This document shows, in pieces, positions 2-12,169 of a stretch of DNA of 30,108 bases. A program made the position numbers and the translations under genes. Position 1 is the stretch's first letter. Every line of letters begins with the position of its first letter. The notes beneath the pieces were generated by a model. The model did no database searches. It was not told the DNA's origin and was given only the letters and a program-made list of their open reading frames with translations. Source of the stretch: Actinomycetota bacterium (GTDB taxonomy: Bacteria; Actinomycetota; Acidimicrobiia; Acidimicrobiales; CADCSY01). Location: NCBI GenBank assembly GCA_016178435.1, contig JACOTK010000067.1:1-30108 (forward strand). The letters are read 5' to 3'.

Positions 2-1039
2 GCAGCCACCTGTGCGGTTTCCCAGCGGGACATCAAGAAGGTTCTTGCCTACTCCACGGTGTCGCAACTGGGGTTCATGTTCCTCGCCGTCGGCTCGGGC
101 GCTTATGTGGCCGCCATCTTCCATATGGTGACCCATGCTTTCTTCAAGGCCTTGCTATTCCTGGGTGCGGGCTCGGTGATCCACGGCATGGATCACGAGC
201 AGGACATGCGTTTCATGGGCGGGCTGCGCAAGCTGATGCCGATCACCGGAGCCACGTTCATCGTCGGTTGGTTGGCGATCGCGGGCGTCCCACCCTTTGC
301 CGGGTTCTGGTCGAAGGACGAGATTCTTGCCGCGGCGTTCGACAAGAGTCCTGCGCTCTGGGTCATCGGCCTGGTGACGGCCGTTCTGACCGCCTACTAC
401 ATGAGTCGCATGGTCTTCATGGTGTTCTACGGTGACCTCGGCGCTCGGGCGCCCGAGGTGCACGAAGGCGCCGAGGACACGCATACCAACCACGACGGTC
501 ATGCGTCGGCGCCCCACGAGTCACCGTTGCTGATGTGGGTGCCGTTGGTGGTCCTTGCCATTGCCGCCGCCCTGGCAGGGGGTTTGAATCTGCCGGGGGT
601 CCTCACCCTCGAGCACTTCCTCGATCCCATCTTCCTCGGGCATGTTCACGAGCTGGACATCAGCGGAGCGGGGCAGGTGACTCTGGGGGCCCTTGCGGTG
701 ATCGGATCCGTGGTGGGCATCCTTGCAGCCCGTGCGTTCTACCTGCGTGGGGCCAAACCTGTCGAGGGCATCGAGCCGGAGCTATTGCGCCGGGCCTGGT
801 TGGTCGACGAGGGCATGGCGGCGTTCTTCGGCGGCCCGGGCCGTGCCATCGCGCAAGCTGCGGCAGACGTGGATCGCGAGGTTGTCGACGGGGCGGTCAA
901 CGGTGTGGCCGTGGCCGTACGCGAGGCAGGGACCCAACTGCGGCAGGTTCAGACCGGGAACGTGCGTCAGTATGCGCTCGGCATGGCAGGTGGCGCTGCG
1001 CTCCTGCTCGGTTTCTTCTTTCTGAGGATGGGCTCGTGA
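2..1039 (+). CDS. nuoL: NADH-quinone oxidoreductase subunit L, first cluster (5' end outside the window)
   Basis: Frame is open from base 2: QRDIKKVLAYSTVSQLGFMF, HAFFKALLFLGAGSVIH, GFWSKDEIL and C-terminal QTGNVRQYA are NuoL/ND5 motifs. Confidence 0.97.
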   Translation, partial: AATCAVSQRDIKKVLAYSTVSQLGFMFLAVGSGAYVAAIFHMVTHAFFKALLFLGAGSVIHGMDHEQDMRFMGGLRKLMPITGATFIVGWLAIAGVPPFAGFWSKDEILAAAFDKSPALWVIGLVTAVLTAYYMSRMVFMVFYGDLGARAPEVHEGAEDTHTNHDGHASAPHESPLLMWVPLVVLAIAAALAGGLNLPGVLTLEHFLDPIFLGHVHELDISGAGQVTLGALAVIGSVVGILAARAFYLRGAKPVEGIEPELLRRAWLVDEGMAAFFGGPGRAIAQAAADVDREVVDGAVNGVAVAVREAGTQLRQVQTGNVRQYALGMAGGAALLLGFFFLRMGS

Positions 1040-2673
1040 ACGTGCTTCCGGTGCTGTCAACCCTTGCCACGGAAACCACGGGCGATGCGGCCGGCGGGAC
1101 CGGCTTTCCACTGCTCACCGGCCTGGTGGTGCTCCCGGTGATCGGCGCTCTTCTTGTCGCGATCGCACCGCGCGGGCGCGGCGAACTCGCCCGCCTGATC
1201 GGGCTGCTGACGACGGTTTCGGTTGGAGCGATCGGCCTCTACCTGTTGACGCAGTTCGACGCGGCCGATGCCGGGTTCCAGTTCACGACGCAACACATCT
1301 GGATCGAGCAACTCGGGATCTCGTGGCATCTCGGCGTTGACGGCATCTCCTTGTTCCTGGTGATCCTGACCGGACTGCTGTTTCCGTTGGTGATGGTGGG
1401 TGTGACCCCGCACCACGATCCGAAGCCCTACACGGCGTGGTTGCTTCTGCTCGAAGCCGGCTGCATGGGCGTCTTTCTGTCGCTGGATCTCTTCCTGTTC
1501 TTCGTGGCCTTCGAGATCGTGCTTGTGCCGATGTACTTCCTGATCGGCGGCTGGGGCTACAGCGAGCGTGTCTACGCGGCGCTGAAGTTCTTTCTCTTCA
1601 CCATGGCCGGGTCCGCACTGATGCTGGTTGGCATCCTGACCCTGGTTTTCCTTCACCAGAAGGCCACCGGCGTTCTCACCTTCGATCTCGTCACCCTCGC
1701 TGATTCCCAGTCGGTGGCAGAGGGAACGGCGCGTTGGCTCTTTCTGGCATTCGCCCTGGCATTCGCCGTCAAGGTCCCGATCTTCCCGTTGCACACGTGG
1801 CTGCCCGATGCCCATACCCAGGCGCCGACGGGAGCGTCGGTCATCCTCGCGGGCGTCATGCTCAAGCTCGGCACCTACGGACTACTGCGTTTCGGCCTGT
1901 ATCTGTTCCCCGAGGCGGCATCGCATTTCGCGCCTCTGCTCGTCACCCTTGGTGTCATCGGCATCATCTACGGGGCAGTGGTCGCAGCGATGCAACGCGA
2001 CCTGAAACGGCTCGTGGCCTACTCGTCGGTCGCCCACTTGGGTTTCATCGTCCTCGGGACCTTCGCCTTCACCACGCAGGGACTCGAGGGCGGCATTCTG
2101 CAGATGGTCAACCACGGAATTTCGACGGGAGCACTGTTCCTGTTGGTCGGCATGATCTATGAGCGGCGACACACTCGAGAGATCTCCGAGTTGCACGGCC
2201 TGCAGAAGGCAGCGCCGGTCCTCGCCGTCGTGTTCACGGTGGTGATGTTCAGCTCCATCGGTCTGCCCGGCCTGAACGGTTTCGTCGGCGAGTTCCTCAT
2301 TCTGATCGGCAGTTTCCTGACCCGCCGTTGGTGGGCCATCGCAGCAGCCAGTGGGGTGATCCTTGCGGCGCTGTATCTGCTGTGGGCCTATCAGCGGGTG
2401 TTCCACGGCGAGCCCGAGGGGGAGAATGCCACGATGCCCGACCTCACCTGGCGGGAGGGTTTCGTGCTGGCTCCGCTCCTGGTGGCGATCGTGGGCCTGG
2501 GCGTGTATCCCAAGCCGATGCTCGAACGGATTGAGCCGGCCGTGGAGCGATTGATCAGCCACGTTGAGGACAACAGTGATTTCGATCGCCCGGCAGCGGA
2601 GTCCACAAGGCCGACAGGCGCCTCGGTGTCCGAGCGCACCCTGCATGAACGCATGGGAGGAAACGGCCGATGA
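1036..2673 (+). CDS. nuoM: NADH-quinone oxidoreductase subunit M, first cluster
   Basis: GTG at 1036 overlaps the nuoL stop (GTGA). Motifs HLGVDGISL, FEIVLVPMYFLIG, KVPIFPLHTWLPDAHTQAP, LKRLVAYSSVAHLG, PGLNGFVGEF. The upstream part of the 535 ORF is a GC-rich shadow of nuoL. Confidence 0.96.
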   Translation: MNVLPVLSTLATETTGDAAGGTGFPLLTGLVVLPVIGALLVAIAPRGRGELARLIGLLTTVSVGAIGLYLLTQFDAADAGFQFTTQHIWIEQLGISWHLGVDGISLFLVILTGLLFPLVMVGVTPHHDPKPYTAWLLLLEAGCMGVFLSLDLFLFFVAFEIVLVPMYFLIGGWGYSERVYAALKFFLFTMAGSALMLVGILTLVFLHQKATGVLTFDLVTLADSQSVAEGTARWLFLAFALAFAVKVPIFPLHTWLPDAHTQAPTGASVILAGVMLKLGTYGLLRFGLYLFPEAASHFAPLLVTLGVIGIIYGAVVAAMQRDLKRLVAYSSVAHLGFIVLGTFAFTTQGLEGGILQMVNHGISTGALFLLVGMIYERRHTREISELHGLQKAAPVLAVVFTVVMFSSIGLPGLNGFVGEFLILIGSFLTRRWWAIAAASGVILAALYLLWAYQRVFHGEPEGENATMPDLTWREGFVLAPLLVAIVGLGVYPKPMLERIEPAVERLISHVEDNSDFDRPAAESTRPTGASVSERTLHERMGGNGR

Positions 2674-4214
2674 TCGCCGGCATGTTCGCCCAACTCGGCG
2701 TCCCGACCGACGCCCCTTTCGCTGTGCCTGAGGTGGCCTGGTCGGCGCTCACCCCGCTTCTCATCCTCATCGTCGGAGCACTGGCCCTGCTGGTGGTCAC
2801 CGCTCTCGTGCCGCGGACGTTGCCCGTCGGGTTCTTCACGGTCACCACGGTGGCCGTTGCCGCCGGCGCGGCAGTCGCCTCTTTGGGTTCGTGGGATCGC
2901 GTGACCGACCCCGATCGGGGCCCTTACATGGCGGTTGCCGGCGCGATCACCCTCGATGGATTCTCCGTGTTGGTGACCGCGCTCCTGGCCATCACTGTGG
3001 TCCTGGTCGCTCTCCTCGCCGATGGCTATCTGCGTCGAGAAGGCCTCGGCGCGGCGGAGTTCTCGGTGCTCGTGCTGCTCTCGGCATCGGGCGGGGTGAT
3101 GATGGCGCTGGCCAACGACCTCATCGTCATGTTCCTCGGCCTGGAGGTGCTTTCGATAGCGCTGTACGTGCTTGCAGGCTTCCAGGGCGACCGTCGCGAG
3201 TCGCAGGAGTCGGCGATGAAGTACTTCCTCCTCGGCGCCTTTGCCTCGGCCTTCCTGTTGTACGGCATCGCGTTGGTCTACGGCGCGACCGGTTCGACGA
3301 ATCTCGGCGAGATCGCCGGTTTCCTGGCTCGTGACGTACCGAGTGAACAGGGTCTGCTGCTCGGCGGCATGGCCATGTTGATCGTGGGCTTCGGCTTCAA
3401 GATCGGGGTGGTGCCCTTCCAGAGCTGGGTTCCCGACGTCTACCAGGGCGCGCCGACTCCGGTGACGGCTTTCATGGCCTCCGGGGTCAAGGTTGCCGGA
3501 TTTGCTGCGCTCCTGCGGGTGATCGTCTCGGCGCTGTCGGTTCAGGCTCAGGATTGGCGGCCGGTCATGTGGGTTCTCGCGATGCTCACCCTGGTGGTCG
3601 GACCCGCGATGGCCATCGTTCAGACCGATGTGAAGCGGATGCTTGCCTACAGCTCGATCAGCCACGCGGGGTTCATCCTGATCGGCGTGCAGGCTGCATC
3701 CGACCGGGGAACCGCCGGCGCCTTGTTCTATCTGTTCGCTTATTCCTTCATGGCCCTGGGGGCCTTTGGCGTGGTCAGTCTCGTCGCACGACAGGGCGAC
3801 GTCGGCGTGGACCTCGACCGGTTTCGGGGACTGTCGAAACGTCGACCCGGCCTCGCGCTCGTGTTCGCCGTCTTTCTTCTGGGCCAGACGGGGGTACCCC
3901 TGACGTCGGGCTTCATGGCCAAGTTCTCGGTCATCGGTGCAGCGGTCGCCTCCGAGAGTTATGCCCTTGCGATGGTTGCGATGCTCACCTCGGTGGTCGG
4001 GGCGTTCGCCTACCTGCGGGTGATCGTGGCGATGTACCTCGGTGACGACGAGGAGATGGCGGAAGAGGGCACCAGGCGCGTTCAGATCCCTGCAGCAGCC
4101 GGACTGGCGCTGGGGCTCGCCCTTGCCGTCACCGTCACCCTCGGTGTGTTGCCCTCCACCGTCCTCGATGCGGCCCGTGACGCGGTGCCCGCTCGCCTCA
4201 GTCCCAGCCGTTAG
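2670..4214 (+). CDS. nuoN: NADH-quinone oxidoreductase subunit N, first cluster
   Basis: ATGA overlap with nuoM. Motifs LGLEVLSIALY, ESAMKYFLLG, FKIGVVPFQSWVPDVYQGAPTP, KRMLAYSSISHAG. Confidence 0.96.
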   Translation: MIAGMFAQLGVPTDAPFAVPEVAWSALTPLLILIVGALALLVVTALVPRTLPVGFFTVTTVAVAAGAAVASLGSWDRVTDPDRGPYMAVAGAITLDGFSVLVTALLAITVVLVALLADGYLRREGLGAAEFSVLVLLSASGGVMMALANDLIVMFLGLEVLSIALYVLAGFQGDRRESQESAMKYFLLGAFASAFLLYGIALVYGATGSTNLGEIAGFLARDVPSEQGLLLGGMAMLIVGFGFKIGVVPFQSWVPDVYQGAPTPVTAFMASGVKVAGFAALLRVIVSALSVQAQDWRPVMWVLAMLTLVVGPAMAIVQTDVKRMLAYSSISHAGFILIGVQAASDRGTAGALFYLFAYSFMALGAFGVVSLVARQGDVGVDLDRFRGLSKRRPGLALVFAVFLLGQTGVPLTSGFMAKFSVIGAAVASESYALAMVAMLTSVVGAFAYLRVIVAMYLGDDEEMAEEGTRRVQIPAAAGLALGLALAVTVTLGVLPSTVLDAARDAVPARLSPSR

Positions 4215-4262
4215 GGTTCGAGCCCCGAGGACCTCCGGTCCGGTTGTCCGGTAGGGGGTGTC

Positions 4263-7200
4263 TCAGTTGTGGTTGTCCGATTGGATGGTTCCCACGTCTC
4301 GCACATGGCGGGAGGGCGTCTTACCGGTCAAGGTCAGGTCCAACAGGTTGACCGGCATGGGTCGGGCGAAGAGGTAACCCTGACCGAGGACACAACCGAG
4401 TCCCTGGAGGATTTCGAGCTGCTCGGGTGTCTCGATGCCCTCGGCCAGAGGATGGGCGCGCATCTGGTGCGCAAGCTCGATGATCGAGGTGATCAACCGC
4501 AGATCGGGCGCCGGTCCCTGCAATGCGTGAACGAAGCTCTTGTCGATCTTGATCACGTCGAAGGGAAATTGCTGCAGGTAGCCGAGAGAGGAATACCCGG
4601 TCCCGAAGTCGTCGACACCCACCATGACCCCAGCCGTTCGCAGATCCCTCAGGGTCTGCTCGTTGTTCGTCCCGTCGACCATGGTGCGTTCGGTGACCTC
4701 CAGGTGGAGACACGTCGGTTCGAGGCCGAATCGATCAAGGGCATCGAGGACATCGGCCGCAAATGTCTCGTCCAACTGCCCCGCCGCGACATTGACCGCC
4801 ACCGAGGACGGTGCGGCTTCTCCCAGCTCCAGTTGCCACGAACGAAGCTGTTGGCAGGCCTCCTCCAACACCCACCGCCCGAGAGGTACCACGAGACCGG
4901 TTTCCTCGGCGAGTGAGATGAAGCCATCGGGCATGAGCAGTCCACGTTCGGGATGTTGCCAGCGCACGAGTGCCTCGACCCCCACGATATCGAGGGTCGT
5001 CAGTGACACGATCGGTTGGTAGTGGAGTACGAGTTGGTGGTTGCTGATGGCGCCCTCCAGCGCACTGCGCAGAGCCAGGTGTTCGAAGACCTGGGCACGG
5101 AGATCCTCCTCGAAGACCTGGCTCTGCGCCTTGCCCTTCTCCTTGGCAAGGTAGAGCGCCATGTCCGCGTTGCGCATCAGCTTCTCGGGCAGGACCTCCT
5201 CACGGTGCCGGGCGTTGGCCACGCCGATGCTTGCGGTCACGACAATGTGGTGACCGTTGATCGTGACCGGTTCGGCGATGACGGCGTGAATGCGATCCGT
5301 CACCGAAAGGACCTCCTGTTCGGTGGCGGACTGGTGCAGGAGAACGGCAAACTCATCGCTTCCGAGACGAACCGCGATGTCATGGGTGCGCAGGCATGAA
5401 CGAAGGCGATCAGCGGTGATCCTGAGCAGGCGGTCGCCGATACTGTGTCCGAGCTGCTCGTTGATCGCCTTGAAGTCGTCGAGATCTACCACCAGCACGA
5501 CCAGTGCTTCCAGGTCCTCGTCGGTCCAGGTAAGCGCCTCACCGAGTTGCTCGACGAACATGGTTCGATTTCCGAGGCCGGTCAGCGTGTCATGCCGGGA
5601 CTGGTAGGCAAGATCGTCCTCGAGCACTCTGTTGACCGTCACGTCGCGCGCGTTGATGACGAGTCCATTGACGGCAGGTTCATCACGCAGGTCGGTGACC
5701 ACCAGGTCGATGGCCCTCGGTCGGTTGTGCTGGTCGACGAAGCGCACCTCTGTCGAGAAGCTCTCGGTTGACCCGGAAAGGAGTGCGGCCCAGTCACCTT
5801 CGAGTCTGCTGCTCTCTTCGACGGGGAGCATGGTGAAGAGATCGCCCCCCAGGAGCTCCTCGGACTGGTAATGGAGCACCTTGGTCACCGACGGGCTGAC
5901 ATAGGTGATGATGCCCGTCGGGTTCACGATCGCCACGACATCACTGGAGTTCTGCACCAAGGCACGAAAGCGCGCTTCGCTGTGTGCGAGCTGCTCCTCG
6001 GCGTGCTTGCGTTCGGTGACGTTGCGGGCATTGATGAGTATGCCCCTGATGTCGGCCTGATCGGTCATGTTCGAGGCGATGAGCTCAAAAGGAAGGTATG
6101 ACCCATCTGCCAGACTGATGCGTGCCTCGGCCGATGATGTCGTTCCGACCGCTGCCCTCACCTCCACCATCATCTCCTGTACCCGCCGAAGATCGTCGGG
6201 GTGAACGAGATCGGCGCCCGGCATCGCCGTCAGTGCTTCCTCGCTGAAGCCGAGCAGGTGTTGAGCGGCAGGGCTCATGAAGGAGAACCCTCCGGTCTGG
6301 CCGGCAACGCAGACGATGTCCGAGCTGTGCTCGATCAGGGCTCGGAACCGTCGTTCGTCCTCCCGTCGGTGCAGATCGCGGGCCAGCAGGGCGCTCTCCA
6401 TGGCAAGTGAGACCTCGGACGACAGTGCCTCGAGACTCCGCAACACGGGGGTCGGGATGTCGGCTGGACTGGAGACGATCAGGATTCCTCGGAGATCCCC
6501 CTGGGTGCCCAGGGGCATCAGGGCGGTACTGATGGTGCCGCTCTGCACACCGATGATGGCACGTCTCGGGAGGTCGACGGGGGGGGATGCCGGGACGTAC
6601 ACAAGTTGTCGTTGGCGGATGCCGTCCAGAAATGGCGGGGCGAGATCACTGGTTCGAACCACGGTGCCGGTCGCCTCGAGTGCTTGACTCCCCGTGGCCG
6701 CAATGACGGTCATGGACTCCTCGGGTCCGATGGCAAGGCTTACCCGTATCGTCCTCTCGTTTCCCATCAGTGCCGTGGCGGCGGTGATCGCTCCGACATG
6801 GATCTCCTCATCGGTGGTGGCGGCGACCAGGGTCAATCCGGCCTCGTGCAGCGCCCGCTCCCTCAGAGCGATCTCCTCGGTTGCCCTGACGAGCTCGACG
6901 AGCCGTGCCACGACGAGTCCGGAAAGCACCACAGAGGCGGTGACGATGACGGGCAGGTCAACGGTGAGGTCGCGAGCGATCTCGAAGACGAGGACGGCCG
7001 GGGTCACGAGCAGGGGGGCTGCCAACATCGCCACACGACGAAATCGCAACGTCTGGGTCTGCCGGGGGGGCGAGTCGGTGAGCACTTTTGCCGAGGGGTG
7101 CAGGATGCCGACGGCTCCCAGGACGTAGGAAAGCGACGATATCGGAGCGATGAAGCCCCCCTCGTAGATGCCGGCCGTCGACATGGTGAGCAGGAGATCC

Positions 7201-7799
7201 GAGATGAAGATCGCAGCAAAGGATCCAACGAGAAAATAGAAGCTGGGATTGCGCCAACCGGGACCGATGATCAGGAAGACGATGGCGGTGAGGAGAGCCA
7301 GGGTGAGCCCTGAGTATCCGGTATTGACCAAACGATCCGCAAGAGGGACTGTCGTATCGCGCACATAAGGTGAAAGCAGGGCCGCCCACGCGACAACGCC
7401 GAGACTGGAACTGATCAGAAGCGAATCATAAAGATGCGCACGTTCCAGTTTCCTTGTCCGCATCCGTACCAGGCGGATTGTGCCTATGAAGAGGCACAGA
7501 TAACCGGCAATAAAGAAGAAATCTGCCGGCGAGGGGAAACGGAGATCATCAATCGTTGGACTCAAGATGCCCAGCAGGATGTTTCCGCTGATGATCAAGG
7601 CGCCGCCGGACCCAAACCATGACCATGCCTCCTTGCCGGGGCGGTCCATTGTGCGCGCGCATCGAAACACGGTCGCCACGGCAACCGTGCCGATCGCCAG
7701 GGTGAGAACCTCAGCTGCCTCCTCGGTCAGGAACAGGGCGAGGACGACAAAGGCGAGACCCAGCGCCAAGAATTGTCTCCAGGTCGGTTCGATCGCCAT
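4263..7799 (-). CDS. Membrane-anchored GAF-like/PAS/PAS/GGDEF/EAL c-di-GMP signalling protein
   Basis: N-terminal multi-TM sensor region (FPSPADFFFIAGY), two PAS repeats (RFRALIEHSSDIV, RFRALVQNSSDVV), GGDEF domain with GSDEF and an RTHD I-site, EAL domain with EALVRW, LEVTE, DDFGTGYSSL, IKIDKSFV, AEGIE, QGY. ATG 7799 has GAGGG upstream; the alternative start is GTG 7877. Confidence 0.95.
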   Translation of the reverse strand: MAIEPTWRQFLALGLAFVVLALFLTEEAAEVLTLAIGTVAVATVFRCARTMDRPGKEAWSWFGSGGALIISGNILLGILSPTIDDLRFPSPADFFFIAGYLCLFIGTIRLVRMRTRKLERAHLYDSLLISSSLGVVAWAALLSPYVRDTTVPLADRLVNTGYSGLTLALLTAIVFLIIGPGWRNPSFYFLVGSFAAIFISDLLLTMSTAGIYEGGFIAPISSLSYVLGAVGILHPSAKVLTDSPPRQTQTLRFRRVAMLAAPLLVTPAVLVFEIARDLTVDLPVIVTASVVLSGLVVARLVELVRATEEIALRERALHEAGLTLVAATTDEEIHVGAITAATALMGNERTIRVSLAIGPEESMTVIAATGSQALEATGTVVRTSDLAPPFLDGIRQRQLVYVPASPPVDLPRRAIIGVQSGTISTALMPLGTQGDLRGILIVSSPADIPTPVLRSLEALSSEVSLAMESALLARDLHRREDERRFRALIEHSSDIVCVAGQTGGFSFMSPAAQHLLGFSEEALTAMPGADLVHPDDLRRVQEMMVEVRAAVGTTSSAEARISLADGSYLPFELIASNMTDQADIRGILINARNVTERKHAEEQLAHSEARFRALVQNSSDVVAIVNPTGIITYVSPSVTKVLHYQSEELLGGDLFTMLPVEESSRLEGDWAALLSGSTESFSTEVRFVDQHNRPRAIDLVVTDLRDEPAVNGLVINARDVTVNRVLEDDLAYQSRHDTLTGLGNRTMFVEQLGEALTWTDEDLEALVVLVVDLDDFKAINEQLGHSIGDRLLRITADRLRSCLRTHDIAVRLGSDEFAVLLHQSATEQEVLSVTDRIHAVIAEPVTINGHHIVVTASIGVANARHREEVLPEKLMRNADMALYLAKEKGKAQSQVFEEDLRAQVFEHLALRSALEGAISNHQLVLHYQPIVSLTTLDIVGVEALVRWQHPERGLLMPDGFISLAEETGLVVPLGRWVLEEACQQLRSWQLELGEAAPSSVAVNVAAGQLDETFAADVLDALDRFGLEPTCLHLEVTERTMVDGTNNEQTLRDLRTAGVMVGVDDFGTGYSSLGYLQQFPFDVIKIDKSFVHALQGPAPDLRLITSIIELAHQMRAHPLAEGIETPEQLEILQGLGCVLGQGYLFARPMPVNLLDLTLTGKTPSRHVRDVGTIQSDNHN

Positions 7800-8006
7800 G
7801 GGTCGCCCTCGTCCAGATGTCCTGTGGAAGTGCAGATTCTCGGCCCGCTGAGGACTGCGACGGCGATTCCTGAACACAACGGCAACACGATGCTAACGGG
7901 TTGACCATCGGAAACACACCATTTCGCTCAATTCGTAGCCATCTACCTACGCTGGGTCTCAAGAAGTCGGTCGGTCGCCGAGACCCTGACGACACCGGGT
8001 GCTCTA

Positions 8007-8495
8007 CTACCAGGAAGCCGTGTCGTACACCGCTGCCACAAGCGCACACACGGGCTGATCCCGACAGGCCACCCCCTCGACGCGGAGTTGTGGAGGGCCG
8101 AAGCTCGATGTCGGGCGCCCGGCAGACATCGCGGCGAGGCTGGCCTCGATGTCGCTTTCCACCTGCTGACGACTGGTTCCATCGTGCTCGACGAACAGTC
8201 CTTTGCCTGAACCGGGTTCCTGTACCCAGCCGATGCCCGCAAAGCCATGGTGGGCCGGCGTGGTGACGCGCGTCTGGGCCATCACCAGGTACAGGCGGTC
8301 ACCCCACCTTCCCGGGAGCGTAGCGGGCTCGTCATTCGAGATGATCTCGGAGTGGGCGGGGATGATGGAGCTGAGTTGCAGCAAATTGTAGTTGGCGATC
8401 GACGCGTCACGGAGCGCTGCATCAAAAGCAGCGATGGCCGTGGGTCCGGTCCCGACACCTGAGACAATCTTGATGGACAAACGCCTGCAGTGCAT
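8007..8495 (-). CDS. pdaD: Pyruvoyl-dependent arginine decarboxylase (PdaD/PvlArgDC family)
   Basis: SGVGTGPTAIAAFDAALRDASIANYNLLQLSSIIP with the Ser-Ser self-cleavage site (S42-S43), the conserved Asn, GLFVE with the catalytic-type Glu, and C-terminal CALVAAVY. Substrate is inferred from family membership. Confidence 0.88.
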   Translation of the reverse strand: MHCRRLSIKIVSGVGTGPTAIAAFDAALRDASIANYNLLQLSSIIPAHSEIISNDEPATLPGRWGDRLYLVMAQTRVTTPAHHGFAGIGWVQEPGSGKGLFVEHDGTSRQQVESDIEASLAAMSAGRPTSSFGPPQLRVEGVACRDQPVCALVAAVYDTASW

Positions 8496-8505
8496 GAAGC
8501 GCTAC

Positions 8506-9141
8506 CTACGAGTCTGCTATTCGGTGCTCGAGCTCCGGCTCATCATGAAGCTCCGCTGGATGGTCGCGGAGATCAATGACGTCCTCTGGGAGCTCGCTCA
8601 GTGTGACGGCGTAATAGTGCTGGCAATCGATTTCATCGATCTGTACATGAGCGACCTCTCTGGCGATCGCTGTTACGAGATCGGGCAGGCCAACTTCGTT
8701 CACGTTGTAGGCGCAACAGTCGAAAGCGGTCATGCCCCGGTTGTTCATAATGAAGCCGGCGATCTCGTGGAGCATGGCTCGAACCCAGGGCCCGCCCTGT
8801 ACGTCGGGTCGGACGAGGAGCGCACTGATGTAGTAGATGACACCTCGGTCGTAGTGGTCGGGGAAGTGATGTCGGTAATAGGTGGGGTTGATCCAGGGAA
8901 GGGTCGCGAGCTCGGTGGCCAACGTGGCGAGGGCACAGGGCCGCCCGTGCTCATCCCTCCCGATGAACTTGACGACAGCGTCGGATGCCATCTCGTGTCG
9001 GAACTCGTCGTCGGTGAACCACTGTCGAATCGCACTGCGGGTGGCGAGCGGAGCAAAGGACTGACGGTAGAGATCCAGGAAGGGCTCGACGGCGTCCTGA
9101 TCGACATGGCGATCGATCGTGATCGACAGCGCGTCGTTCAT
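8506..9141 (-). CDS. GNAT-fold hypothetical protein (putative acyltransferase)
   Basis: 211 aa from ATG 9141 (MNDALSITIDRHV). YYISALLVRPDVQGG resembles GNAT motif A (acyl-CoA binding). The 9369 extension only translates repeats. It ends 10 nt before the pdaD start. Confidence 0.7.
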   Translation of the reverse strand: MNDALSITIDRHVDQDAVEPFLDLYRQSFAPLATRSAIRQWFTDDEFRHEMASDAVVKFIGRDEHGRPCALATLATELATLPWINPTYYRHHFPDHYDRGVIYYISALLVRPDVQGGPWVRAMLHEIAGFIMNNRGMTAFDCCAYNVNEVGLPDLVTAIAREVAHVQIDEIDCQHYYAVTLSELPEDVIDLRDHPAELHDEPELEHRIADS

Positions 9142-9194
9142 GATCGTCCGATGAGCGACAGCGGGGGGTGCATCATGACCGTCCGATGAGCGAC
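9138..9194. repeat. 22-bp direct repeat, 2 copies, 35-bp period
   Basis: TCATGA[T/C]CGTCCGATGAGCGAC at 9138-9159 and 9173-9194, one mismatch. Confidence 0.9.
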
Positions 9195-9228
9195 GACTGG
9201 GGAGTTGGGTGTGACCGTTCGGTTGTGT

Positions 9229-9240
9229 GACACCGGTGTC
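9229..9240. promoter_or_regulatory. Perfect 12-bp palindrome, candidate operator
   Basis: GACACCGGTGTC in the divergent intergenic region. The palindrome is directly seen; its function is inferred. Confidence 0.4.
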
Positions 9241-9242
9241 TC

Positions 9243-9288
9243 CGGCGGGTAGCGGCGGGTAGCGGCGGGTAGCGGCGGGTAGCGGCGG
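9243..9288. repeat. 10-bp tandem repeat (CGGCGGGTAG) x4.6
   Basis: Four perfect units plus CGGCGG. Gives GGG-N7-GGG-N7-GGG-N7-GGG at 9247-9279. Confidence 0.95.
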
Positions 9289-9418
9289 ACCCAACCGTAG
9301 CCCGGCGAAAGCCGGCGGGGAGCGCGCGATCGCTGATTTCCGTGCTCGACCCGCTCCGCCGTCCGGCATTGTCTCCCTCCCTCGAAAGGCCCACGCGTCG
9401 GACCCTCGACGCTTCGAT

Positions 9419-9447
9419 CTGACAGGTCGGTCGATGCGCTTTAGGCT
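9419..9447 (+). promoter_or_regulatory. Housekeeping-sigma promoter of the second nuo operon, probably leaderless mRNA
   Basis: CTGACA (9419-9424), 17 nt spacer, TAGGCT (9442-9447). GTG start 8 nt later with no Shine-Dalgarno. Confidence 0.6.
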
Positions 9448-9455
9448 CCCTCGAC

Positions 9456-9821
9456 GTGTCGGAGCTGCTACGCGCTTATCTCACCGTGGTCGTGTTCCTT
9501 GCTGCCGCAGGGATGCTGGTCGGAGTGTCACTGGGCATGGGTAGGTTGCTGCGTCCAAAACGCCCGTCTGCCCAGAAGGCGATGACCTATGAGAGCGGGG
9601 TGGACCCGGTCGGTTCCATCTTTGGTCAGAGTCAGGTCAGGTATTACATTTTTGCTCTGCTCTTCGTGATGTTCGACGTGGAGGCCGTGTTCATCTTTCC
9701 CTGGGCCCTGGGTCTGGAGGTCTACGGCGTGTTCGGTTTGGTCGAGATGACGATCTTCATCGTCATCCTTGCTCTTGGCCTGCTCTACGCATGGCGCAAA
9801 GGGGTTCTTCGGTGGGTCTAG
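9456..9821 (+). CDS. nuoA: NADH-quinone oxidoreductase subunit A, second cluster
   Basis: [44 protein letters not shown]. Confidence 0.97.
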
Positions 9822-10312
9822 TCGAGAAGGGTCTCATTCCCAAGCCCCTCACACATCTGCTCAACCTCAGTCGCAAGTACTCGCTCTGGGTGTACCAATG
9901 GGGATTGGCCTGTTGCGCGATCGAGATGGGTGCGGCGTTCGGCTCGCCGCGTTACGACGTCATGCGCCTCGGTGTGATCCCTTTTCCCGCCGGCCCTCGC
10001 CAGGCCGACCTCGTCGTCATCTCCGGCACGGTCACCGACAAGATGGCGCCGGCCATTCGCCGCCTCTACGAGCAGATGCCCGACCCCAAGTACGTGATCT
10101 CCATGGGCAGCTGTGCCAACTGCGGCGGCCCGTACTGGGACTCCTACTCGGTGACGAAGGGTGTCGACCAGATCATTCCCGTCGACGTCTATGTTCCCGG
10201 CTGTCCCCCCCGACCCGAGGCGCTCCTCGAGGGCATCGTCCTGCTCCAACAACTGATCGGCAACGAGGACATGGCCGAACGCTGGCGAGGTGATCCCATT
10301 GTCGTCTCCTGA
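9812..10312 (+). CDS. nuoB: NADH-quinone oxidoreductase subunit B
   Basis: [40 protein letters not shown] (all N2 ligands). GTG 9812 (MGLVEK) is preferred over ATG 9791. Confidence 0.96.
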
Positions 10313-11000
10313 GGCTCCCGAGGTGGTCGGCACGCCCGAGGTCGATCACGCTCGTCAACACCTGATCGACGTGCTGCGCGCCGAGTTGGGCGCAGGGCTC
10401 ATCGACACCTACCTCAAGCCCGGCCTCGACGTTTGGGCACGGGTGAGCCCCGATGCCTGGTGCCGAGCAGCGGAGGTTTGTCGGGACAAGCTGCACATGC
10501 GCTATTTCTGCTTCCTCTCCGCCGTCGACTGGCTTCCTTCCCCATTCGGCAAGAGCGAGGACGGTGTGTCGCGCACCGGCGACGAAGTGCGTGCGCTCAC
10601 CGCGGCGAACCTGGCCGAGGGTCTCGACCACGGCTACTGCGGTGGGGACACGCGCTTTCAGCTCATCGCTCGCCTTCACTCGGTGACGACCCATCTCGGC
10701 ATCCATCTCAAGATGGACGTTTCCGACTCCGACCTCACCGCACCGTCGTGGATCCGCGCCTTCGCCGGAGCGAACTGGCATGAGCGGGAGGTCCACGAGA
10801 TGTTCGGCATCGTGTTCACCGGCCATCCCAACATGGCGAACCTCTACCTGCCGGGTGATTTCGTCGGGCATCCTCTGCGCAAGGATTTCCCGCTGCTGGC
10901 TCGTGAGGTGAAGCCCTGGCCGGGTCTGGTCGACGTCGAGCCGATGCCCGGCGAGCCCGCCGGCGAGGAAGACGGTGAAGTGTCGGGAGAAGAGGCATGA
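10290..11000 (+). CDS. nuoC: NADH-quinone oxidoreductase subunit C
   Basis: [36 protein letters not shown]. Start could be TTG 10299. Confidence 0.95.
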
Positions 11001-12169
11001 ACACCCTGACCGAGCGCCAGAAGCTGGCCTACATCGCCGGACAGGCCGCCGAGGCGCGTATCAACGTGGAGCTCGAGACCGAGGGCATGACCCTCAACAT
11101 CGGACCTCAACACCCCGCAACGCACGGCACCTTGCGGGTGGTGGCAAAGCTCGACGGCGAGCAGGTCGTGTCGGCCAATCCGGTGATGGGCTACATGCAC
11201 CGGGGATACGAGAAGCTCACCGAGGTGCGCACCTATCCGCAGGTCACCACGTTGGTGAACCGCATCGACTGGCTGGGCAGCTTCGCCAACGAGGTGCCCT
11301 TCATCCTCGCGGCCGAACAGCTCATGGAGGTCGAGGCGCCCCCTCGCGCCCAGTGGATCCGCACCATCCTCTTCGAGCTCTCCCGCATTGCCAACGTCGC
11401 ACTGTTCCTCGGCGACATGGGAGTCCAACTCGGCGCCATCACGCCCGTCTTCTACGCGTTCCGGGATCGTGAGTACGTGCTCAACCTGATCGAGTCGGCA
11501 ACCGGCGGGCGGTTCCACCCCAACTTCGACCGTATCGGTGGCATCAAGGACGATCTCCCCAAGGGCTGGATCGAGGAGACCCGTGGCGTCATGGTCAAGG
11601 TCCGGCGGTTCTGCGATGAGCTCGAGGAGCTGATCCTGGGCAATCCGATCTTCGCCGCACGCACTCGTGGTGTCGGCGTGATCCCCGGAGAGACGGCGTT
11701 GCACTACGGCCTCTCGGGCGCGAACCTCCGTGCGAGCGGTGTCGACTGGGACCTTCGTCGGGACGGCGCCTCGCCCCTCGCGTGGAACCAGGTCGACTGG
11801 AAGGTGTGGACCCATCCCGACGGCGATTCCTTCGCCCGCTACTGGGTGCGCCTGCAGGAGACGCGTGAAGCGTCGTACATCGTCGAGAAGCTGCTGGACG
11901 GCCTTCCCTCCGGCCCGATCATGGCGAAGGTGCCACGCATCATCAAGGTCCCCCAGGGCGAAGCCTGGGTCTCGACGGAAAACCCCCTGGGTGAGATGGG
12001 CTACTACGTTGTGAGCAAGGGCGACCTCGGTCCCTTCCGGGTCAAGATCCGCTCGGCCTCGTTCAACAACATCTCGATCGTGCCCTGGGTGCTCAAGGGT
12101 GTCTACGTTCCGGACATCATCACCATCCTGGCCAGCCTGTATTTCATCCTTGGAGACATTGACCGGTGA
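10997..12169 (+). CDS. nuoD: NADH-quinone oxidoreductase subunit D (divergent type)
   Basis: NIGPQHPATHGTLR, GYMHRGYEK, ELSRIA, ENPLGEMG, C-terminal GDIDR. No CxxC NiFe motifs. Confidence 0.96.
   Translation: MNTLTERQKLAYIAGQAAEARINVELETEGMTLNIGPQHPATHGTLRVVAKLDGEQVVSANPVMGYMHRGYEKLTEVRTYPQVTTLVNRIDWLGSFANEVPFILAAEQLMEVEAPPRAQWIRTILFELSRIANVALFLGDMGVQLGAITPVFYAFRDREYVLNLIESATGGRFHPNFDRIGGIKDDLPKGWIEETRGVMVKVRRFCDELEELILGNPIFAARTRGVGVIPGETALHYGLSGANLRASGVDWDLRRDGASPLAWNQVDWKVWTHPDGDSFARYWVRLQETREASYIVEKLLDGLPSGPIMAKVPRIIKVPQGEAWVSTENPLGEMGYYVVSKGDLGPFRVKIRSASFNNISIVPWVLKGVYVPDIITILASLYFILGDIDR

Follow-up and report, generated by a model that had tools for sequence, protein, structure and literature searches.

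We know of no ligand for most membrane GGDEF/EAL proteins or for most orphan seven-transmembrane (7TM) kinases. A locus on contig JACOTK010000067.1, from a member of the Acidimicrobiales, raises the question of whether one such receptor is encoded beside the enzymes that make what it senses. Within the 30,108-nt stretch analyzed here (the window, to which coordinates refer unless another locus is named), three minus-strand genes are wedged between two nuo clusters. They encode an unclassified protein, X211; a pdaD-like protein of the pyruvoyl-dependent PvlArgDC family; and a membrane protein with two PAS domains followed by GGDEF and EAL domains, the presumed receptor. Open reading frame (ORF) calls and Pfam both agree with the arrangement described in an earlier sequence-only reading of this DNA, three co-oriented genes antisense between nuo clusters with 10 nt between X211 and pdaD (8496–8505); a further 129 nt separate pdaD from the receptor gene. 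For the proposal that the three genes form one module, in which the decarboxylase product is acylated by X211 and sensed by the N-terminal membrane domain of the receptor (TMN) to set cyclic di-GMP (c-di-GMP), we put the chances at about even. The linkage of the genes is strongly supported and broader than the sequence-only reading could see, and the mechanism is plausible.

The linkage rests first on recurrence. The trio is found in about 17 diverged lineages, in which X211 is 38–48% identical to that of the window (loci L065/66, L067, L068–70, L072 and L073, plus L075–L084). Loci L075–L084, obtained by a related-locus search with a six-sequence alignment, come from metagenome-assembled genomes labelled Acidimicrobiales, Iamiaceae, Acidimicrobiia, Mycobacteriales or Actinomycetes, and on the short contig L071, X211 precedes the first part of a PvlArgDC gene. 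The trio comes in two layouts: either every gene points the same way, as in the window, or the receptor gene is divergent from X211–pdaD (L065, L076, L078, L080 and L081). X211 and pdaD overlap in some relatives, and the order in a genome of a different family, G421, is pdaD–X211–TMN–GGDEF. Within the window's own genus, the whole block is gained or lost as one 5.2-kb unit. It is present in the window's genome (G000) and in G003, and the same site is empty in G001, where about 125 bp separate a nuoM-like gene from nuoA. The sequence-only reading had staked its proposal on co-occurrence of the three genes in other genomes, and this is borne out by the roughly 17 lineages, the two layouts, the fusions described below and the presence or absence of the block within the genus.

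Several sub-lineages add genes to the trio. A PrmA-like S-adenosylmethionine methyltransferase gene lies between pdaD and the receptor gene in some (L067:1781–2698, L077, L079 and L084:5263–6195), a FadD11-like acyl-CoA ligase gene lies just upstream of X211 in another (L084:2233–4056), and a small membrane protein of 171–215 aa (amino acids) is encoded upstream of X211 in others (L068:7321–7848 and L072:4207–4722). The ligase and methyltransferase fit a small-molecule pathway. An AMP-binding gene near X211 in G421 was also considered; it is a steroid-24-oyl-CoA synthetase equivalog and hence is not counted in the module. Sub-lineages also carry a convergent RDD-family gene downstream of the block.

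The association of X211 with a membrane sensor extends beyond the trio. In a phylum sample of 401 genomes, 24 X211 loci were found in 23 genomes. Thirteen of the 24 lie beside a TMN-GGDEF(-EAL) gene, 10 beside genes for a pyridoxal phosphate (PLP)-dependent decarboxylase and a HisKA_7TM kinase, and one beside neither. The background is low: the window's genome has about 20 GGDEF genes and a single TMN, that of the X211 neighbor; in the 2 Mb of G030 there are two GGDEF genes, and X211 adjoins one of them; and the best TMN match was the X211 neighbor in all five genomes searched. The adjacency of X211 and receptor is far beyond chance.

TMN comprises about ten closely spaced transmembrane helices joined by short loops. 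It has no Pfam match, and its conserved residues are D151, D227, H260–P261 and R281. Residues 350–500 of the receptor also lack a Pfam match, and the protein may start at an alternative ATG at 7799. The sequence-only reading had given the architecture as GAF/PAS/PAS/GGDEF/EAL; Pfam recovers both PAS domains, GGDEF and EAL, and no GAF model stands among the Pfam matches at E ≤ 0.01 or among 25 of the 37 NCBIfam matches. The EAL motifs of the window receptor are intact (VEALVRW, DDFGTGYSSL and EGIET), and its EAL domain is a probable phosphodiesterase. Since the GGDEF-domain motif reads GSDEF, in the window as in G003, the window receptor would act mainly in this direction. Among complete triad receptors with the domain, GGDEF is intact in 13 of 14, the motif of the remaining one being unreadable.

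In the Ilumatobacteraceae, X211 adjoins a GGDEF-EAL protein of 750–820 aa in the four genomes searched, and the N-terminus of that protein is homologous to TMN (hhalign 99.8%, E 1.8e-28). No PF01862 match occurs anywhere in these four genomes, which include that of Ilumatobacter coccineus NBRC 103263 (G341; X211 is WP_015441954.1), where a SpeA-like gene and arginase-family genes are present. Trees of X211 and TMN built from 29 pairs contain the same three clades and share most sub-clades (patristic r = 0.87). I. coccineus has two X211–TMN pairs, with X211 at about 2.668 Mb (WP_015441954.1) and at about 1.989 Mb. In each tree the two pairs fall into separate clades, so X211 and TMN were duplicated or acquired together. 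The genes of the module are inherited, lost and duplicated together.

A parallel module, found in other Actinomycetota classes, keeps X211 and exchanges both partners. Here X211 is fused to a PLP-dependent, LysA-like ornithine/arginine/diaminopimelate decarboxylase (L058, L061 and L062) or lies just downstream of a PLP decarboxylase (L055, L056, L057, L059, L063, L064 and L089). An orphan HisKA_7TM histidine kinase of about 715 aa is convergent to X211 in 10/10 PLP-decarboxylase loci, and the same kind of 7TM protein follows co-directionally in P0021, a closer X211 relative. TMN and the 7TM domain of the kinases have no detectable homology (hhalign, probability 0.1%), and no response regulator is conserved beside the X211-linked kinases. 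The PLP decarboxylase of L063 (10563–11263, G373) consists of two short fragments only and may be a pseudogene. Pyruvoyl enzymes are fused to X211 as well, in the metagenomic protein P0041, with a fusion remnant in P0046. X211 is therefore the constant element: time and again it is fused to or lies beside decarboxylases of two unrelated folds, and its sensor neighbors are polytopic proteins of two unrelated kinds with two outputs. Coupling of decarboxylase and X211 rests on the fusions with both folds, and coupling to the sensor on an adjacency that spans three X211 subfamilies and two sensor types. As a separate observation, the P0041 contig (JGI 3300043331) carries, after the fusion gene, genes for a stand-alone receiver-domain protein and a saccharopine-dehydrogenase-family protein; that family includes polyamine-pathway enzymes.

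The fusions also bear on a different role for X211. PanZ (PanM) is a GNAT-fold protein that acts on the pyruvoyl-dependent decarboxylase PanD, and X211, a GNAT-fold protein (see below) encoded with a pyruvoyl-dependent decarboxylase, could in the same way mature or regulate the pro-enzyme. The precedent of PanZ as an activator, the short gap or overlap between the two genes and the PvlArgDC–X211 fusions would all suit such a role. However, X211 persists in the four Ilumatobacteraceae genomes that lack a PvlArgDC match, and it is also fused to decarboxylases that depend on PLP and require no maturation of this kind. The existence of fusions with two unrelated decarboxylase folds therefore disfavors a purely PanZ-like function, which we consider very improbable.

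The window decarboxylase, a 162-aa protein, passes the PF01862 (PvlArgDC) model with 92.6 bits against a cut-off of 22.7. Alignment to PdaD of M. jannaschii matches the guanidinium-binding D35, the Asn required for processing (N47) and the self-cleavage site S52–S53 of that enzyme to D25, N37 and S42–S43 of the window protein, and D25, N37, S43 and E103 are conserved in 19/19 X211-linked homologs aligned, position 42 being Ser or Thr. E103, within an FVEH motif, is invariant in the X211-linked homologs and may correspond to the M. jannaschii catalytic Glu, E109. In the phylum sample, PF01862 is present in 41/401 genomes. Full-length copies in families without X211 score 119–147 bits, whereas the X211-linked copies (n = 3) score 86–92 bits, the lowest among full-length matches. 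Because the high-scoring copies sit in X211-less families and the X211-linked copies score lowest, the scores mark the X211-linked decarboxylase as a dedicated divergent subfamily, separate from biosynthetic PdaD. Arginine is its likely substrate.

What the decarboxylase product might serve is narrowed by the surrounding metabolism. The sequence-only reading had pointed out that no agmatinase is adjacent, and this absence extends genome-wide: neither arginase/agmatinase family genes nor agmatine deiminase were found in G000 (90% complete), G001 or G003 (98% complete). Routine putrescine synthesis thus does not explain the pdaD gene, and agmatine made here would have no known onward route to putrescine. 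It could still be argued that the enzyme has a housekeeping role in polyamine synthesis, or one in acid resistance, and that its neighbors are unrelated, since PvlArgDC is the biosynthetic arginine decarboxylase of archaea and two Actinomycetota families of the sample carry high-scoring copies almost throughout, f36 (10/10 genomes) and f38 (19/21). Yet G001, of the same genus, lacks a PvlArgDC gene altogether, the 3/3 X211-linked copies in the sample belong to the separate low-scoring subfamily, and, besides the missing agmatinase and deiminase, the block holds three genes only, with no transporter, antiporter or binding-protein gene among them. We give the housekeeping explanation next to no credence.

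No Pfam or NCBIfam model recognizes X211 on its own. Among 5.8 billion proteins, a word-indexed search gave one 91% cluster, so that an exhaustive search was needed; with HMMER this returned relatives in 554 representative clusters at E ≤ 0.001, most of them stand-alone proteins of 180–240 aa. Weak PF00583 matches occur in 25/101 relatives (best E 1.3e-5), and the window protein has no GNAT match. An AlphaFold (AF2) model built with a 101-sequence alignment reached a pLDDT of 90.8, and a single-sequence model, with a pLDDT of 37, was not used. In Foldseek searches of PDB and Swiss-Prot, the model matched the GNAT fold with probability 1.00 and TM-scores by hit of 0.6–0.7, at 9–16% sequence identity to the best structural matches. 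The nearest folds are AAC(6')-I, AAC(3), GNA1 and the polyamine acetyltransferase DpA (PDB 8a9n), with NatD also close. On the strength of this model we place X211 in the GNAT superfamily with confidence and presume it to be an amine N-acyl- or acetyltransferase. Near-invariant residues are Y25, E46, F47, K58, W83, P94, Y104, D141 (in the FDCC motif), D172 and Q174, and the family motifs are VPWISP, FDCC and DxQxYY.

The GNAT assignment in the sequence-only reading therefore holds at the level of fold and through the weak PF00583 matches of relatives, though not through any model match of the protein itself. Its likeness to LuxI and FeeM fares worse. The nearest folds are small-amine N-acetyltransferases, a LuxI-type synthase (VanI) appears among the Foldseek matches at rank 29 (TM-score 0.46 by query, 0.50 by hit), and autoinducer-synthase and Acetyltransf_5 models are absent from the Pfam results for X211 and its 101 relatives. 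The broader idea of a synthase–receptor pair loses this likeness and gains independent support from a sensor neighbor at 23/24 X211 loci and from decarboxylases of two folds, to which X211 is usually adjacent or fused.

Two variants of X211 were also observed. P0109, P0124 and P0143 (L088) contain two tandem X211 domains, duplicated GNATs in which FDCC is kept in the second copy. A subfamily with an FDIC motif (P0063, P0080, P0110 and P0114) carries a further C-terminal domain, about 260 aa long, that has a conserved VRPxxKxRYPL and is matched by no Pfam model; an FDIC-type X211 in L086 (1–1387) lies directly upstream of a TMN-GGDEF-EAL gene.

The fold neighbors of X211 include the protein N-terminal acetyltransferases NatD and RimI. 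Together with the co-diversification of X211 and TMN and a degenerate GNAT pyrophosphate loop, they would be compatible with a direct action of X211 on the receptor or the decarboxylase, as a protein acetyltransferase or as a partner without catalytic activity, and not on a small amine. Decarboxylases of two unrelated folds, recurring as fusion partners or neighbors of X211, instead suggest a shared small-molecule product, and complex prediction supports neither side. A protein target for X211 seems to us improbable.

We therefore return to the three-gene module, whose proposed course is as follows. The divergent pyruvoyl decarboxylase would convert a basic amino acid into a primary amine, most likely arginine into agmatine, and X211 would N-acylate or N-acetylate that amine. 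The resulting amide, or the balance of amine and amide, would act in or at the membrane on TMN of the adjacent receptor, which would set c-di-GMP via EAL, the window receptor mainly hydrolyzing it and most orthologous receptors keeping an intact GGDEF. The block probably links second-messenger signaling to a small molecule derived from an amine. Fold neighbors suggest that the acyl group is acetyl, and the FadD11-like ligase of some loci, together with the membrane-embedded sensor, suggests a longer chain. The substrate, the acyl donor, the direction of coupling (enzymes feeding the sensor) whether the signal works within or between cells and the quorum-sensing role raised by the sequence-only reading are the parts of this scheme that we infer. 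A bolder extension would make X211 a widespread undescribed class of signal synthase that, with a decarboxylase, produces an N-acyl polyamine or N-acyl-agmatine autoinducer read within the membrane by TMN-GGDEF-EAL proteins in Acidimicrobiia or by 7TM kinases in other classes, a lipid-amine form of cell–cell or envelope signaling with synthase–receptor co-diversification as in LuxI/LuxR. We regard this extension as unlikely.

Several observations weigh against the module as proposed. The 162-aa protein falls below the NCBIfam equivalog cut-offs (55.8 versus 106.95 bits and 50.1 versus 207 bits), and because it belongs to a divergent subfamily below these cut-offs, its arginine specificity is not assured. 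In X211 the region of the usual GNAT pyrophosphate loop (Q/RxxGxG/A) reads V110-R-P-D-V-Q-G-G-P-W, is weakly conserved and varies family-wide; since the loop reads QGGPW and varies in this way, the acyl donor is uncertain. TMN receptors without X211 also exist (G001, G002 and others), hence not every TMN protein requires X211. Any two tightly linked genes would give mirrored trees, which show co-inheritance, not interaction, and a predicted X211–TMN complex gave no answer, neither for nor against binding. The sequencing runs that contain the locus are DNA metagenomes only, and a sequencing-run search returned no RNA runs with it.

The occurrence of TMN receptors without X211 also bears on the direction of coupling. 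The membrane sensor might answer some other cue (such as envelope, redox or light input via PAS) and, through c-di-GMP or a phosphorelay, control production of an acylated polyamine as the final product, for instance as an envelope or matrix constituent, as an osmolyte or as a detoxified form of the amine. Such inputs could enter through the two PAS domains and the unassigned region on the cytoplasmic side, and acetylation of a diamine, a polyamine modification, is known to alter Acinetobacter motility and biofilm (PMC10267138; DpA structure, PDB 8a9n). But c-di-GMP and histidine-kinase outputs would then both need to converge on the same enzymes, and neither a c-di-GMP effector nor a response regulator is conserved beside those enzymes. 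A conserved enzyme pair with a polytopic sensor is more simply read as a ligand source and its receptor, and we hold the reverse direction to be rather unlikely.

Coordinates of the features of the locus are collected below, with the genomes that carry the parallel PLP-decarboxylase module.

Table 1. Features of the window and location of the parallel module (aa, residues of the receptor).
Feature	Position	Strand	Basis and details
X211	8506–9141	−	211 aa; ORF 8506–9369, conserved start is the ATG at 9141
PvlArgDC-family pdaD-like gene	8007–8495	−	162 aa; ORF list and Pfam
Predicted self-cleavage site Ser42/Ser43	8367–8372	−	Alignment to M. jannaschii PdaD
Membrane receptor gene	4263–7877	−	1204 aa; ORF list and Pfam
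TMN domain, about 10 transmembrane helices	6843–7790, aa about 30–345	−	Hydropathy profile
PAS domains (two)	aa 510–618 and 642–748	−	Pfam
GGDEF domain	5127–5597, aa 761–917	−	Pfam, 146 bits; GSDEF motif, RTHD I-site (RxxD) five residues upstream
EAL domain	4359–5063, aa 939–1173	−	PF00563, 232 bits
Leader upstream of X211	9142–9412	−	Palindrome and 10-mer repeat
5.2-kb block	4215–9412		Boundaries in the window about 4215 and 9412
Proton_antipo_M genes (flanking nuo/Mrp-like cluster)	535–4214	+	Pfam
nuoA/B/C/D (flanking nuoA-led cluster)	9456–12169	+	Pfam
PLP decarboxylase/7TM-kinase module	L055–L064, L089		Genomes G211, G071, G115, G250, G198, G171, G237, G373, G340, G328

The leader of X211 contains a perfect 12-bp palindrome, GACACCGGTGTC, at 9229–9240, some 90 nt ahead of the X211 start codon. 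It is found in the G003 leader too and, as a sequence feature, is a candidate operator. Beside it the 10-mer CGGCGGGTAG is repeated 4.6 times (9243–9288), an array found in this genome alone; G003 has a single copy. An Rfam scan of 3900–9700 found no riboswitch and no other RNA family, and a promoter and terminator scan gave no signal above shuffled expectation and none within the intergenic gaps.

Two further observations concern other genomes of the genus. In G003 (L005:10450–10480), the X211 start codon is directly followed by one extra base, which reflects either an indel error of long reads or a true frameshift, and the annotated protein is the N-terminally shortened, 161-aa P0163. In G002, the nuoA-adjacent site holds a TMN receptor and no X211 or pdaD. 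This receptor (L091:11728–13554) is 44% identical to that of the window although the flanking nuoABC proteins are 79–98% identical; it may have been replaced, or have diverged fast once the enzymes were absent.

Comparison with known systems helps to place the module. In NspS–MbaA of Vibrio cholerae, polyamines are sensed by the periplasmic binding protein NspS and set c-di-GMP. Here, too, polyamine-type amines would set c-di-GMP through a membrane GGDEF-EAL protein, but the block has no binding-protein gene, the sensor is a ten-helix membrane domain, and dedicated biosynthetic enzymes (decarboxylase and GNAT) are part of the block. The exosortase-A-associated set, with its TIGR03098 ligase and TIGR03099 PLP decarboxylase, includes a GNAT-like N-acyl synthase and shares the logic of acyl-CoA ligase, decarboxylase and GNAT-type acyltransferase. 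That set is bioinformatically defined and is not tied to GGDEF-EAL proteins or 7TM kinases. The X211-linked enzymes, moreover, score far below its cut-offs (115–142 bits on TIGR03099 for the PLP decarboxylases, 123 bits on TIGR03098 for the L084 ligase) and have no exosortase context. As in LuxI/LuxR and the FeeM/N-acyl amino acid synthase modules, a GNAT-related enzyme stands beside a presumed receptor and the pairs duplicate and diverge together; unlike in those systems, the presumed receptor belongs to the membrane c-di-GMP enzymes or kinases and not to the LuxR regulators, and a decarboxylated amino acid would serve as substrate. With SpeG, DpA and AgmNAT, X211 shares the GNAT fold, DpA and AAC(6') being among its best structural matches, yet it differs from these amine N-acetyltransferases in forming a separate family with motifs of its own. 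Drosophila AgmNAT produces N-acetylagmatine, according to the accessible part of its report (PMC5647378), and the accessible part of the DpA report mentions no fixed genomic partnership with a decarboxylase and a membrane sensor (PMC10267138). The sequence-only reading knew of no described system with this gene set, and our searches of the full-text literature likewise found no description of it and no signaling chemistry for the carrier Acidimicrobiia.

The analysis delimits a new GNAT family, which comprises 554 representative clusters and has no Pfam or NCBIfam model, and a new membrane sensor domain, TMN, and it sets a dedicated divergent PvlArgDC subfamily apart from biosynthetic PdaD. 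Comparative genomics links two unclassified sensor domains to a specific pair of enzymes that would make a candidate ligand, in Acidimicrobiia of groundwater, soil, sediment and fresh water, which are abundant and poorly known, and in other classes of the phylum. The question of what the receptor senses thereby becomes directly testable, and I. coccineus NBRC 103263 offers a culturable carrier of the X211–receptor pair.

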